Shown here in pieces: positions 40,649 through 44,567 of a stretch of 64,000 bases of DNA. The stretch comes from a phage: the sequence record PQ724392.1; one strand, written 5' to 3'. Within the stretch, counting starts at the first letter, position 1, and each line of letters starts with the position of its first letter. The notes beneath the pieces are model-generated. The model worked only from the letters and a program-made list of their open reading frames with translations. It made no database searches and had not been told where the DNA came from. Made by a program: the position numbers and the translations under genes.

Positions 40649-40816
40649 TTATACTGTAGGTTTATCGTCTTTATTCTTACGCTTTTTTGATGGGATTTGT
40701 TCAGGGCCTTTATTGACAACTGCCCCGGAAGTGGTACCTGTTGCGATATTAGTTGGGTTTCCACCTGCATCACCGGCAACCATATCTTCATTGATAAAAT
40801 CTTTGAATGTTTTCAT
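40649..40816 (-). CDS. small hypothetical protein (55 aa)
   Basis: ATG with AAAGGGGGTG SD; late-promoter-like TATAAATA 17 nt upstream; hand-translated MKTFKDFINEDMVAGDAGGNPTNIATG... Confidence 0.4.
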   Translation of the reverse strand: MKTFKDFINEDMVAGDAGGNPTNIATGTTSGAVVNKGPEQIPSKKRKNKDDKPTV

Positions 40817-40832
40817 AACACCCCCTTTCCGC

Positions 40833-40840
40833 TATTTATA
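40833..40840 (-). promoter_or_regulatory. late-promoter-like TATAAATA upstream of small ORF 40649-40816
   Basis: exact TATAAATA on minus strand 17 nt upstream of the ATG. Confidence 0.45.
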
Positions 40841-41027
40841 CAATGAAGATAGCTTTATTGCCATTTGCATCAGTCACTTCATAGGTGTCTTCATGATACA
40901 ACGGAATAATCCAGGTAACACCATCATCAGCGATAACATGGATTGCTTCTTGGTCTTGCGACACGATTTCATATTCTTCAAAAATCTGGAAGACCGAAAT
41001 CTTAGAGCCCGTACACATTGCAGTCAT
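40836..41027 (-). CDS. hypothetical protein
   Basis: 63-aa ORF, co-oriented. Confidence 0.45.
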   Translation of the reverse strand: MTAMCTGSKISVFQIFEEYEIVSQDQEAIHVIADDGVTWIIPLYHEDTYEVTDANGNKAIFIV

Positions 41028-41069
41028 ATTAACCTCGCTTCATGAAGGCATTAAAAATCTGGTCATCAA
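41025..41069 (-). repeat. 45-bp direct repeat, copy 1 (gene junction cassette)
   Basis: catattaacctcgcttcatgaaggcattaaaaatctggtcatcaa; 42/45 identical to copy at 41386-41430. Confidence 0.8.
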
Positions 41070-41388
41070 TATCAGTAGGCAGTTCTTGAGCTTTAACCCA
41101 AGCCCCTTCCAGAATGTCATTTGCTTCAGTAGATATCATGACCCCAATTTCAGGGTTTCCGGTTATCCATGCTGCACAATCGCGTACATTCTTTTTATCA
41201 AATGGATAGCCACGAGTATCTTCATAAGGTCCACTCATTACCATAAATGAGCGAGCCTTTATAATAACATCATCTTTAACGATAATATAACCAATCGCCT
41301 GATTAAACCGAGGCTCACGAAATTCATAACGGGCATTACCATTATTATTGCTCACCAGTTCAAAATTCAGAAAATTATAATAACTCAT
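41029..41388 (-). CDS. hypothetical protein (shares C-terminal tail DDQIFNAFMKR with next gene)
   Basis: 119-aa ORF; 3' end lies in a 45-bp direct repeat. Confidence 0.5.
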   Translation of the reverse strand: MSYYNFLNFELVSNNNGNARYEFREPRFNQAIGYIIVKDDVIIKARSFMVMSGPYEDTRGYPFDKKNVRDCAAWITGNPEIGVMISTEANDILEGAWVKAQELPTDIDDQIFNAFMKRG

Positions 41389-41430
41389 ATTAATCTCGCT
41401 TCATGAAGGCATTAAAAATTTGGTCGTCAA
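41386..41430 (-). repeat. 45-bp direct repeat, copy 2 (gene junction cassette)
   Basis: catattaatctcgcttcatgaaggcattaaaaatttggtcgtcaa. Confidence 0.8.
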
Positions 41431-41830
41431 CTGAATATACAGGGGTTTCCAGAAGTTTCAAAAGACTGTTTTTAATGTACTTACCCGGGATACCCATATT
41501 AACAATACTGTCATTCAATTCATTATCAGGGTTGATGTCTTTAAATTCAAACCCATCAAATTCAACCTTGTCAGGAATACCATCAGCGAAAAAATAAACC
41601 AATTGGTGCATTGTATTGCGCGAAAATAATTTAGACTTGACCGCAATAAGTTCTTGCCAATGGTTTAATTCTTTGTTAAGAAGTTTATGAGCAAACGTAA
41701 TTCTATTATCACTATCAACAAGAAAATAACCCAGGTATTGAATGGGGTCGTCGCTCCAAAACATCCTGTATGCTTGTGCATTTTGATTTTTACAACGAAG
41801 TTTTTTGATAACTAAATTTCTGTTAATCAT
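41390..41830 (-). CDS. hypothetical protein (shares C-terminal tail DDQIFNAFMKR with previous gene)
   Basis: 147 aa from internal ATG immediately after the sp stop; 3' end lies in second copy of the 45-bp repeat. Confidence 0.45.
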   Translation of the reverse strand: MINRNLVIKKLRCKNQNAQAYRMFWSDDPIQYLGYFLVDSDNRITFAHKLLNKELNHWQELIAVKSKLFSRNTMHQLVYFFADGIPDKVEFDGFEFKDINPDNELNDSIVNMGIPGKYIKNSLLKLLETPVYSVDDQIFNAFMKRD

Positions 41831-41831
41831 T

Positions 41832-42125
41832 TTATTCACCTGTAACCCATTGAACAATTTTGCTATTGTCAAATGAAGCATCGCAATACAGAACATAGTT
41901 ATACTGCATAACGCCACCAGAAGTCAATTGGTCAGATACTTCTTTAACCATATCAGGGCGGTCACGTTTAGTTATGTTCATGATATCAGCATAAATCTGG
42001 TGTTCAACATCAGTCTGGTCAGCAGTCATAGACCACTCACAAAGGTCTTTATCAAGTCCAGCGGTGACAGGTGCTGTGCCACAAGATGCTACGGCAAAAA
42101 TTGCTGCGATAATTAACTTTTTCAT
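41832..42125 (-). CDS. sp: spackle-like secreted protein (superinfection exclusion / lysozyme inhibitor)
   Basis: 97-aa ORF with N-terminal signal peptide MKKLIIAAIFAVASCG; size and position between 61 and 41 as for T4 sp (61.3). Confidence 0.6.
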   Translation of the reverse strand: MKKLIIAAIFAVASCGTAPVTAGLDKDLCEWSMTADQTDVEHQIYADIMNITKRDRPDMVKEVSDQLTSGGVMQYNYVLYCDASFDNSKIVQWVTGE

Positions 42126-42153
42126 AATGTTCTCCTCAGTAGTTGATAAGGAT

Positions 42154-42182
42154 AATATACTGCATTATTCCCTTATTGTACA
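42154..42182 (-). promoter_or_regulatory. T4-type early promoter upstream of sp
   Basis: minus strand GTGTACA - 17 nt - TATATT, then conserved leader ATCAACTACTGAGGAG. Confidence 0.45.
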
Positions 42183-42183
42183 C

Positions 42184-42525
42184 TTATTTTTCACCTTCAA
42201 CTGAAAAACCGGTCAAGTTGTAATATTCAGCACGTGCAATATGAAGAGCTGCTTCAATATCAGTAAGGCAGATTTCTTCATTTAACAGTTGCGCTTCAAC
42301 GGTCAAAATCAGATTACGCAATGCGGTACCCTTACGCATGTCTACTTTATGAATTAGCTTGTCATCAACAAAAGCTTCAACCAGCGCATTATAGTTATCA
42401 GCAGTCTTCTGGACATACCAGTGAATACCTGCGGGGTGGAACATGCTAGAACGTTCAAAAGATGGTACACCAACAGCACTCACTTTGATTGTTACTTTTA
42501 CGCGGTCTTCTGGATTAAAATCCAT
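42184..42525 (-). CDS. Dmd-like paralogue
   Basis: 113-aa ORF; segment MF....W.VQ.....NYNALVEAFVDDK......R aligns with the Dmd core (NNALVKAFVNDNKVFEYDYR) of the adjacent gene. Confidence 0.5.
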   Translation of the reverse strand: MDFNPEDRVKVTIKVSAVGVPSFERSSMFHPAGIHWYVQKTADNYNALVEAFVDDKLIHKVDMRKGTALRNLILTVEAQLLNEEICLTDIEAALHIARAEYYNLTGFSVEGEK

Positions 42526-42738
42526 TTAGATTTCCTCAGATAAGTGGATGCGATAATCATATTCAAAAACTTTATTGTCATTAACAAAGGCTTTCACCAG
42601 CGCATTATTCACTTCCGCATACTGCACTGTAACCCATTCAATCATATTTTGGTCACTAACATCCAACATGGTTTCTTTGGTAAACATATTACCATTTTCA
42701 AACCAACCAATAAATACTACGTTCTCTAATTTATACAT
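42526..42738 (-). CDS. dmd: Dmd antitoxin (inhibitor of RnlA/LsoA-type toxins)
   Basis: 70-aa ORF; VVF.GWF.N..MFTKE........W.T.QYAEVN.ALVKAF..D.KV.E.D.R matches recalled T4 Dmd (60 aa); location between 61 and 41. Confidence 0.7.
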   Translation of the reverse strand: MYKLENVVFIGWFENGNMFTKETMLDVSDQNMIEWVTVQYAEVNNALVKAFVNDNKVFEYDYRIHLSEEI

Positions 42739-43056
42739 TTAGATTTCCTCGCAGAAGGCCCAGGCAGCGTGATAAACTGTTGCGCCTTTAGTATCATTTA
42801 AACAAACCACGTCAACCGGTGCAATCACACGATAAAGACGGGGTTCTCCTCCATATGAGCGAGCTGCTCTTCCTGCATAGATACGCGCCAAACCAATATC
42901 TTCAGTAAAAAACACACGCCCTAAATTTTTCTTACGTCCAACTTCTGACAGAACACCAGTTGCATCAGGAGGACAAAGCATATTTTGGATTCCAGCATTA
43001 GAGCTTGACCCATGATAATAAACTTTGTATTCTGCCTTGCAATCAATGGTTTTCAT
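42739..43056 (-). CDS. hypothetical small protein with H-G-S / Y / E motif arrangement
   Basis: 105-aa ORF between dmd and gene 41, a position I recall as empty in T4; YYHGSSS, ARIYAGRAARSY, GGEPRLY. Confidence 0.45.
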   Translation of the reverse strand: MKTIDCKAEYKVYYHGSSSNAGIQNMLCPPDATGVLSEVGRKKNLGRVFFTEDIGLARIYAGRAARSYGGEPRLYRVIAPVDVVCLNDTKGATVYHAAWAFCEEI

Positions 43057-43094
43057 TTTATTCTCCAGTAGTTGATAGGGTCATTATAACATAA

Positions 43095-43119
43095 GAAAAA
43101 GGGGCTGTAAGCCCCTTTT
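43095..43119 (-). terminator. rho-independent terminator after gene 41
   Basis: minus strand GGGGC-TTACA-GCCCC followed by TTTTTCTT; a TATAAT -10 follows immediately. Confidence 0.65.
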
Positions 43120-43127
43120 AAAATATT

Positions 43128-44567
43128 TTAAAATTTCATTTGAGCAGCAAGGTCGTCCAGGTCGCTCCTGTTGACCCTGGTTTGTCGATTCATTTCAGCC
43201 TGGCGATTCATCTCACCGGTGGCTTCTTTAACCGTAGGACCTTGTTTAGGAGCTGAATCATCATCAACCTCATACCAGCGCTGATTACCTTTCTTAACAC
43301 CCATCTTGAATTTATTATAGTAGTTCTTATCACCATAACGAGACTTAAGCTGTTTGATTAACTGCAGCCCCATTTGAGCGAATTCTTCGGTCTCAACAAC
43401 ACCCAACATAAAGTCAGCTGTATGAGCAATACCAAAGGATTCTGCGATATCAGCCATATCAATCTCAGCTGCAACGTTCGCGCCCCTGGTTGTCTGCGCT
43501 GCAGTCCACAGGACCACATTTTTCTCGACTGCCAGACCACGAAGTTCTTCTGCAACCATCTTAATCAGACCGTAACTATTTTCGGTAAACGTTTTCAGTC
43601 TTGAGCTCGCACAGATTGCCAGGTAGTCAACAATAATCACATCCGGCACAAACCCTTGCTTCAGCTTGTACTCGTTCAGTAATGCACGGAAGGTGTCCGC
43701 ATGAGCACCGCCAGTTGGATATTGTTTTATTTTCAGAGTCCCAAGAGTCCCGGAAGCACGCCATTTTTCCATCTTAGCTTTATATTCTGCCCATGATATA
43801 TGACCTTCATCAATATCATCCAGAGACACATCCAGCAAGTTGGCATCAATACGTTTGGCACATACTTCTTCGGCCATTTCCATGCTTATATAAAGCACGT
43901 TATGACCAGTCTGAAGATAGTCAGCGGCTAACGAACAAAGTCCTAGAGATTTCCCGACGTTGGTCCCAGCCAGTAAAACGTTTTCTGTACCATACTCAAC
44001 TCCACCCTTCGTGATTTTATTCAGGATGTTAATGCGGAACGGAACCTTTTTCGATTTGTTCAGATAAGTCTGGAATCGAGCTTCGTAATCGTTTAACCAG
44101 TCATGGCCCAGTGCAGAGTCAAAACAGATGGACAATGCATCACGCATGATGTCAGGGATAGCACCGATATCCGGGATTCGTTTATCACGTTTATCTTTCG
44201 GAAGTTCGGCATTACTCTGGATTTCGATAATCCTGGATGTGGCATTGAACATCGCAGACTTCTGTACATACTTCTCGGTTTCTCTGACCAACCATTCCTG
44301 GTCTTCTGGAGTATCGGCCAGGACTCCTAAGAGTTTCTTTGTGCCTTCGTATTCAACTTCAGAAAGGTCAGAACTGTCGAGCGCGATATCAAGTGCAGTC
44401 TTAGTTGGCACCGCCTGATATTCTTTTACGTGTTCGTTAATCGTATTAAAAAGGGTCTTCGCTGGACCCTTTTCAAAATATGTGCTATTCAGATATGGCC
44501 AGACTTTAACAAAATATTCCTTGTTAAAGAGTAGCTGGGATAAAATAGTTTCTACCACTTCCACCAC
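43128..44567 (-). CDS. 41: replicative DNA helicase gp41 (DnaB family)
   Basis: 479-aa ORF; Walker A AGTNVGKS, Walker B IIVDYL, arginine-finger region; length as T4 gp41. Confidence 0.9.
   Translation of the reverse strand: MVEVVETILSQLLFNKEYFVKVWPYLNSTYFEKGPAKTLFNTINEHVKEYQAVPTKTALDIALDSSDLSEVEYEGTKKLLGVLADTPEDQEWLVRETEKYVQKSAMFNATSRIIEIQSNAELPKDKRDKRIPDIGAIPDIMRDALSICFDSALGHDWLNDYEARFQTYLNKSKKVPFRINILNKITKGGVEYGTENVLLAGTNVGKSLGLCSLAADYLQTGHNVLYISMEMAEEVCAKRIDANLLDVSLDDIDEGHISWAEYKAKMEKWRASGTLGTLKIKQYPTGGAHADTFRALLNEYKLKQGFVPDVIIVDYLAICASSRLKTFTENSYGLIKMVAEELRGLAVEKNVVLWTAAQTTRGANVAAEIDMADIAESFGIAHTADFMLGVVETEEFAQMGLQLIKQLKSRYGDKNYYNKFKMGVKKGNQRWYEVDDDSAPKQGPTVKEATGEMNRQAEMNRQTRVNRSDLDDLAAQMKF

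Follow-up and report, generated by a model that had tools for sequence, protein, structure and literature searches.

Putative Dmd-derived fusion protein and predicted minimal ADP-ribosyltransferase encoded beside dmd in a T4-like phage

Few phage proteins are known to act directly on a bacterial toxin as inhibitors, and Dmd is among them; the locus described here raises the question of what is encoded by the two genes that enclose dmd. The locus occupies positions 42184 to 43056 of a 64,000-nucleotide stretch of phage DNA (sequence record PQ724392.1; the whole stretch that was analysed is called the window below). The source phage is T4-like and belongs to the genus Gaprivervirus, and its DNA from 41800 to 43130 shares 96% identity with that of phages EAWsc9 and VR20. 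Three open reading frames (ORFs) lie at the locus, all on the minus strand and at the positions reported in an earlier note on this DNA: a 105-amino-acid frame at 42739-43056 (ORF105), dmd at 42526-42738, and a 113-amino-acid frame at 42184-42525 (ORF113).

Judged from its sequence, dmd encodes a full-length orthologue of Dmd and lies in the canonical position. ORF113 is most readily explained as a diverged copy of dmd fused to a neighbouring small gene, because its residues 31-65 appear to be Dmd-derived and residues 66-113 exist as a gene of their own elsewhere. ORF105 is predicted from its modelled structure to be a minimal Arr/KptA-like ADP-ribosyltransferase domain that belongs strictly to neither characterised family. 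It seems fairly probable that promoter, ORF105, dmd and ORF113 constitute an early, translationally coupled block that combines a Dmd orthologue, a Dmd-derived fusion and a mini ADP-ribosyltransferase, with functions that we infer. The new element is the putative Dmd-derived fusion protein, a variant of a known antitoxin family. The modelling refines what was known of a widespread mini ADP-ribosyltransferase by giving it a firm fold-level assignment. The concept of an anti-toxin island and the ADP-ribosyltransferase annotation were already known. In the literature searched, neither a Dmd paralogue nor a function for the 105-amino-acid family is described.

The three-gene block

The identification of 42526-42738 as dmd, made in the earlier note, is secure. 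The 70-amino-acid product scores 72.3 bits against the Pfam Dmd family (PF17587), for which the gathering score is 27 (expectation value (E) 4e-20, profile positions 3-59 of 60), and it matches the PHROG Dmd family at 1.3e-33. It is 56% identical to T4 Dmd and has 25 invariant columns in common with 14 homologues that include T4 Dmd. Dmd blocks the RNase toxins LsoA/RnlA and occupies a groove that separates their TBP2/NRD and HEPN domains (PMC8266594), and by analogy with T4 the Dmd of the source phage would plug the groove of RnlA/LsoA HEPN RNases. NCBIfam gave no match for ORF105, dmd or ORF113, and PADLOC gave none for ORF105 or Dmd.

The block and its borders are laid out as follows.

43128-44567, minus: gene 41 (helicase)
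43097-43119, minus: terminator-like hairpin, a 10-bp stem followed by a T run, just after gene 41
43083-43111, minus: best sigma-70/early-promoter-like site, CTTACA-17-TATAAT with an upstream TG, 10/12; a consensus match only
43066-43088, minus: leader repeat copy 1 (CAGTAGTTGATAGGG..., written as the + strand), in front of ORF105
42739-43056, minus: ORF105, 105 amino acids, predicted Arr/KptA-like minimal ADP-ribosyltransferase fold (phrog_2110)
42733-42757, minus: junction repeat copy 1, which contains GAGGAAATCTAAATG and spans the Shine-Dalgarno sequence, the ORF105 stop and the dmd start
42526-42738, minus: dmd, 70 amino acids, with Pfam and PHROG Dmd matches
42520-42544, minus: junction repeat copy 2, with the same 15-mer, spanning the Shine-Dalgarno sequence, the dmd stop and the ORF113 start; 213 nucleotides from copy 1
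42331-42525, minus: ORF113 residues 1-65, Dmd-like domain, with significant homology limited to residues 31-65 (42331-42435)
42184-42330, minus: ORF113 residues 66-113 and stop, a separate helical module resembling the tail of phrog_27940
42154-42182, minus: promoter-like site TGTACA-17-TATATT, downstream of ORF113 and before sp, closing the block
42137-42159, minus: leader repeat copy 2, in front of sp
41832-42125, minus: sp/spackle (Pfam 5e-44)

ORF105, dmd and ORF113 abut with zero intergenic space, each stop codon directly preceding the next ATG, and the 15-nucleotide junction GAGGAAATCTAAATG is identical at the ORF105/dmd and dmd/ORF113 boundaries. A strong promoter-like site and a terminator hairpin are found only between gene 41 and ORF105, and the next promoter-like site comes after ORF113. 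Because the genes abut and the promoter and terminator signals lie only at the ends, the sequence describes one promoter-flanked block of three genes, analogous to the T4 dmd-tifA operon, upstream of which a T4 early promoter sits (PMC9391042). The site at 43083-43111 is presumed to be the promoter of the block. The earlier note had instead given each unit its own promoter-like element or terminator and had pictured each gene as a promoter-flanked cassette, a picture that the arrangement of the signals contradicts. A point against a strictly single transcription unit is that weaker, 9/12 promoter-like matches occur within the block genes, which leaves internal promoters possible. The 23-nucleotide leader repeat, with 83% identity between its copies, stands at both ends of the block, in the leaders of ORF105 and sp and beside the promoter-like hexamers. 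It may represent a shared cassette of promoter and ribosome-binding site and a recombination substrate for module shuffling.

ORF113 and the Dmd family

A Dmd-like motif in ORF113 was one of the claims of the earlier note, and it is borne out. ORF113 obtains 24.3 bits (E 9.5e-7 across the 693 six-frame ORFs of the window) from a Dmd hidden Markov model constructed for this analysis, over residues 34-65 only; the runner-up among those ORFs reaches 3.2 bits, and the maximum among 20,000 composition-matched shuffles of ORF113 is 9.9 bits. Alignment with hhalign pairs ORF113 residues 31-65 with Dmd residues 30-64 (probability 90%, E 1.4e-6), the PHROG Dmd family is matched at 9.4e-6, and Dmd is the sole family in the PDB matched by the ORF113 sequence. 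The orthologue of ORF113 in phage VR7, which is 61% identical, matches the same Dmd columns with 13.7 bits. The Dmd core residues kept in ORF113 are W, A, A-L-V, A-F, D, D and R. This sequence evidence traces ORF113 residues 31-65 to the C-terminal half of Dmd.

The remainder of the protein has a different history. ORF113 residues 66-113 match the tail of phrog_27940. Dhakavirus ESCO10 has, at the same locus, a free-standing 50-amino-acid gene that is 65% identical to ORF113 residues 69-113, and a tail of the ORF113 type forms the C-terminus of a 174-amino-acid protein in Phapecoctavirus phiWec179. Compared with Dmd (T4 61.5; PF17587; PDB 5HY3 chain B and 5I8J), ORF113 is longer, at 113 amino acids, and carries an extra module of 48 amino acids. 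The suggestion that it is a Dmd-like paralogue holds at the sequence level, but for the C-terminal half of Dmd only, which is fused to this unrelated module. ORF113 is a real gene under purifying selection, because comparison with the VR7 copy gives an omega of about 0.1 in both halves, from a proportion of synonymous differences of 0.74, which is saturated, and a proportion of nonsynonymous differences (pN) of 0.25. Its distribution is narrow: a set of 50,697 phage records yields 11 near-identical copies plus four records from VR7/VR25, and a protein search among 5.8 billion proteins returned one cluster.

It is likely that the dmd unit was duplicated in tandem and that one copy diverged and then fused in frame with a downstream small gene to give ORF113. 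The tandem duplication is suggested by the identical junction 15-mers one dmd length apart: the window contains two perfect copies of GAGGAAATCTAAATG, against an expectation of 0.34 matches at up to two mismatches, and these copies sit inside 25-nucleotide repeats 213 nucleotides apart. In register with the junction repeats, dmd and ORF113 also share a 34-nucleotide patch that is 88% identical. We rejected this patch as proof of recent gene conversion: of the 11 residues it encodes, eight are the same in both proteins, and codon bias by itself would bring the identity to about 80%. Amino-acid conservation alone can account for the patch, which counts against using it in favour of the duplication. 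Laboratory T4 amplifies dmd-tifA through short-repeat recombination (PMC9391042), and a route of duplication and fusion would parallel that laboratory evolution of the neighbouring tifA.

By analogy with Dmd, ORF113 would bind and block a different toxin through its Dmd-type core. Retargeting would have come about through a changed surface (K49E, E59K and N44Y) and a rebuilt N-terminal half, and the helical tail may supply extra contacts or oligomerisation. The three substitutions alter surface residues that are invariant in Dmd, and the hydrophobic core is retained. Several observations weigh against this interpretation. The Pfam Dmd score of ORF113, 19.1 bits, is below the gathering score of 27 (E 0.0017, profile positions 29-59 of 60), and the recognisable Dmd part is the C-terminal half only, consisting of a helix and the last strand. 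The N-terminal invariants of Dmd, F9, G11, W12, N15, M18, F19, K21 and E22, find no confident alignment in ORF113; a zero-confidence extension of the alignment into the N-terminal half pairs G, F-E and M-F and leaves W12, N15, K21 and E22 unpaired. The AlphaFold2 model of ORF113 has a predicted local distance difference test score (pLDDT) of 43, too low to serve for a fold search, and comes from an alignment of two sequences, the window copy and P0121, Dmd sequences having been kept out of it lest the fold test be circular. Finally, the conserved helix has undergone charge reversals, which may reflect a loss of toxin binding and not a change in it.

The alternative that survives best is that ORF113 descends from Dmd but has ceased to be an antitoxin, with the Dmd-like core serving as a scaffold for a C-terminal module that acts, for example, as a regulator or as an inhibitor of an unrelated host factor. 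We regard this as a possible, if somewhat unlikely, explanation. It would suit the changed surface of the Dmd-like helix and the unrecognisable N-terminal half, and the C-terminal module is indeed both the better conserved part (pN 0.17 versus 0.32) and the more mobile one, since it occurs alone or on other N-termini. However, the Dmd-like segment has stayed conserved in VR20-type and VR7-type proteins despite saturated synonymous sites, and the gene is located in an island of toxin inhibitors. That the Dmd resemblance reflects chance or composition is scarcely credible: the Pfam E-value is modest and below the gathering score, and the match is just 31-35 residues long, but the model score far exceeds every shuffle, ORF113 is the sole match among the window ORFs, the VR7 orthologue matches independently in the same register, and ORF113 directly adjoins dmd behind an identical junction. 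A PADLOC match of ORF113 residues 46-90 (42256-42390) to the AbiEii toxin (E 0.0043, 14.9 bits) spans the module boundary, is probably due to chance and was discarded. If ORF113 is a Dmd derivative kept by selection, with its surface altered and a module added, it would show that antitoxins can diversify by duplication and fusion, and it would be a ready probe for host toxins not yet known.

ORF105 and the ADP-ribosyltransferase fold

The earlier note had singled out ORF105 as an extra gene relative to T4. T4 has no gene between dmd and 41, and so no ORF105 at that locus, but the presence of ORF105 is not unusual: tblastn finds it in 610 phage records at 60-100% identity. These records carry the host names Escherichia, Klebsiella, Acinetobacter, Aeromonas, Vibrio and others, and the contexts that we inspected are all from Straboviridae. 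Depositors have labelled a few copies "putative ADP-ribosyl transferase" and some "rifampin ADP-ribosyl transferase". Linkage to dmd occurs only in the E. coli-type (coliphage) genera, and in Slopekvirus, Aeromonas phage 65 and Acinetobacter phage Konradin ORF105 is located elsewhere or without dmd. We therefore rejected a functional coupling of ORF105 to dmd; the linkage is lineage-specific and such coupling cannot be inferred from it.

Structure and profile searches of the kind proposed in the earlier note led from ORF113 to Dmd profiles and from ORF105 instead to an Arr/KptA-like ADP-ribosyltransferase fold. The AlphaFold model of ORF105 has a pLDDT of 91.5 and a predicted template modelling score of 0.81, and it displays the split beta-sheet core fold of ADP-ribosyltransferases. 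Foldseek places Arr first (probability 1.00, template modelling (TM) score 0.59), followed by Tpt1 proteins, and a fold search of BFVD returns a phage "rifampin ADP-ribosyl transferase" (TM 0.73-0.81) and a putative RNA 2'-phosphotransferase. Five of 54 close ORF105 homologues match the Pfam Arr-ms family (PF12120), the best with an E-value of 0.084. Distant, fused members of the family pass the Arr-ms gathering score with 35.2, 31.5 and 29.4 bits, and the Arr-ms matches of ORF105 relatives end at profile position 67 of 99. One family member, P0184, matches the Arr-ms structure 2HW2 with an E-value of 3.7e-4, and in this alignment Arr H19 falls on the invariant His of the family and Arr Y49 on the family Phe49. 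Among 101 diverged domains, H15, G16 and Y60 are conserved in 100%, and F49 (98%), T51, R41 and E38 in 96-98%. ORF105 has the arrangement expected for binding of nicotinamide adenine dinucleotide (NAD), namely a strand-1 His together with aromatic residues in strand 2 and in the helix after it (H15, F49 and Y60).

Other observations speak against assigning ORF105 to a working ADP-ribosyltransferase. Direct sequence searches with ORF105 gave no match in Pfam (E up to 1), NCBIfam or the PDB, and a profile of 54 ORF105 sequences gave no match among PDB sequences. No conserved acidic residue stands at or before strand 5 in the 101 diverged domains to correspond to the catalytic Glu/Asp that the H-Y-E and R-S-E clades carry on strand 5; E103 of ORF105 is conserved in the T4-like subset only. 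ORF105 also has no counterpart of the C-terminal third of Arr or of the lobe with which Tpt1 binds RNA.

Comparison with characterised enzymes clarifies where ORF105 stands. Like Arr (PF12120; PDB 2HW2), it is a small single-domain protein, and its strand-1 YHG(T/S) motif aligns with Arr H19. Unlike Arr, it has Phe in place of Y49 and no counterpart of D84, and with 105 amino acids against 143 it is without about 35-40 C-terminal residues of Arr. To Tpt1/KptA it bears a resemblance in the modelled NAD lobe, but those enzymes have two lobes, and the N-terminal RNA-binding lobe is absent from ORF105 together with most of the Arg-His-Arg-Arg tetrad. AcrIF11, an anti-CRISPR ADP-ribosyltransferase (PDB 6KYF), has no sequence similarity to ORF105 and comes from a different phage group, and nothing points to a CRISPR target for ORF105.

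An exhaustive profile search with the ORF105 family yielded 242 cluster representatives, many of which are domains inside large phage proteins. The ORF105-type domain adjoins ART-PolyVal and NUDIX domains in P0172, P0156 and P0150, follows a portal domain and precedes a 2H/Acb1-like phosphoesterase in P0175, and lies in a 3,924-amino-acid protein with a minor-tail domain in P0157; its other partners are DUF7178, or GNAT and Toprim domains. Polyvalent proteins are thought to enter with the phage DNA and to act early on the host (PMC5512222). Because the ORF105-type domain sits in such proteins, which have been proposed to be injected early, its embedding favours a host-directed role for ORF105. 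We propose that ORF105, if the model is right, would use NAD+ to ADP-ribosylate a host macromolecule early in infection, as a step of counter-defence or takeover. Since the family has no conserved catalytic Glu, the acceptor would probably be a hydroxyl- or phosphate-type nucleophile, as it is for Arr and Tpt1. The acceptor, once found, could reveal a new enzymatic mechanism of host takeover or anti-defence, and the family spans hundreds of therapeutic-type T4-like phages as well as domains of injected effector proteins.

Divergent members of the ORF105 family also occur outside T4-like phages (L013 5001-5411 and 8186-8482; L015 5001-5297). One is found on a contig with a fused, 2,556-amino-acid multisubunit RNA polymerase and a cREC_REC gene, which is predicted to process ADP-ribose derivatives, and another in Vibrio phage henriette 12B8, a phage that encodes a single-subunit RNA polymerase.

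Three other roles for ORF105 have to be weighed. It is unlikely, though conceivable, that ORF105 is a KptA/Tpt1-like RNA-end enzyme that transfers ADP-ribose to RNA 2'- or 5'-phosphates and thereby repairs or caps RNAs cut by RnlA/LsoA-type or anticodon nucleases. The 2H and NUDIX fusions sustain such a role, but the search turned up just two fusion examples, and most architectures are polyvalent effector proteins; moreover, of the four catalytic residues of Tpt1 (Arg-His-Arg-Arg), three lie in the N-terminal lobe that is missing, and Foldseek puts Arr first. A role for ORF105 in a three-pronged counter to RNase-type abortive-infection toxins is distinctly unlikely. Dmd, blocking RnlA/LsoA, and an ORF113 retargeted to a second toxin would then be joined by ORF105 ADP-ribosylating a host toxin, a defence protein or the phosphate ends of cleaved RNA. 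Alt ADP-ribosylates MazF, and AcrIF11 ADP-ribosylates Cascade. Were the three-pronged scheme true, ORF105 would represent a new and very widespread enzymatic anti-defence family in T4-like phages and injected polyvalent proteins. We consider it improbable that ORF105 transfers no ADP-ribose to a macromolecule at all and is a binder of NAD+ or ADP-ribose, an NADase, or an Arr-like modifier of small molecules such as rifamycin-type RNA polymerase inhibitors. Arr, the nearest solved relative by Foldseek, does modify small molecules, some depositors have named the gene after rifampin, and a binder or small-molecule enzyme would be in keeping with the want of a conserved catalytic acid. Against this, only Arr-ms positions 1-67 of 99 are matched, the remainder of Arr being absent, the embedding in injected polyvalent proteins argues for a macromolecular host target, and E38, R41, K43 and N44 are strongly conserved outside the NAD core, which suggests a specific acceptor site.

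The dmd-sp interval and neighbouring genes

The interval between genes 41 and 61 has been proposed as an anti-toxin-antitoxin (anti-TA) island of T4 containing dmd, tifA (61.4) and adfA (61.2) (Srikant et al. 2022, PMC9391042). The source phage has its dmd in the same interval, as first or second gene of an early operon, and in both phages the neighbours of dmd are small and variable. Unlike the T4 island, it has ORF113 in the tifA slot and a gene for a predicted ADP-ribosyltransferase fold before dmd. Neither flanking ORF is a T4 61.x gene; the gene in the T4 slot, 61.4/tifA, is unrelated to them, and we rejected the possibility that ORF113 is its orthologue. With four TifA-type queries, tblastn found no homologue of tifA, which encodes a ToxN inhibitor, in the 64-kb window, and one or two copies are present in the gene 41-61 interval of DK-13, VR7 and T4. 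Among close relatives, the interval from dmd to sp has five different gene contents.

SP18: empty
DK-13 and T4: tifA/61.4 homologue
Source phage and VR20: ORF113
VR7: ORF113-like gene and tifA-like gene
ESCO10: zinc-ribbon ORF and 50-amino-acid module

This turnover agrees with the earlier description of the dmd neighbourhood as a hotspot, although the idea of an anti-toxin hotspot had already been published (PMC9391042). ORF105 and ORF113 are good candidates for anti-defence genes, ORF113 being rare and ORF105 common in T4 relatives.

The 3' end of SP18 dmd (..NEK-stop-GTGTACA; L003 2885-2900) and the 3' end of ORF113 (42179-42194) have 16 nucleotides in common, GAAAAATAAGTGTACA. In SP18 this sequence is probably the joint of a deletion that removed the body of ORF113, or of the reciprocal insertion. 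In ESCO10 a 46-amino-acid ORF with CxxC..CxxC zinc-ribbon-like spacing (L005 1849-1989) lies between dmd and the 50-amino-acid module. The deposited ESCO10 product names seem to be offset by one gene, so that dmd is called "zinc ribbon" and the module "modifier of suppressor tRNAs".

The complete minus-strand order in this part of the window is uvsX, gene 40, gene 41, ORF105, dmd, ORF113, sp, two genes with an AdfA-like tail, two small ORFs and the primase gene 61. The two AdfA-tail genes adjoin each other on the minus strand, encode proteins of 119 amino acids (41029-41388) and about 145 amino acids (41390-41830), and both end in DDQIFNAFMKRG/D, which is the C-terminal motif of T4 AdfA (61.2, an anti-DarT factor); the Pfam AdfA match has an E-value of 1.7e-4 on the last 17 residues. 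A tblastn search with T4 AdfA finds the two genes with E-values of 1e-3 and 8e-3, and their 3' ends form a 46-nucleotide direct repeat of 93% identity (41024-41069 and 41385-41430). The full-length, 208-amino-acid AdfA is absent from the window, where these two short genes are the only ones with its C-terminal motif. For the second gene, the ORF listing gives a 175-amino-acid frame with a GTG start that overlaps sp, and its homologues begin at Met30. The EAWsc9 homologue of the gene of about 145 amino acids (L001 2594-3031) was deposited as "serine/threonine protein kinase", a label that is likely a mis-annotation, as Pfam shows no kinase domain in the window copy. The two small ORFs that follow toward gene 61 are these.

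40836-41027, minus: 63-amino-acid ORF
40649-40816, minus: 55-amino-acid ORF, taken as the 61.1 homologue by position only

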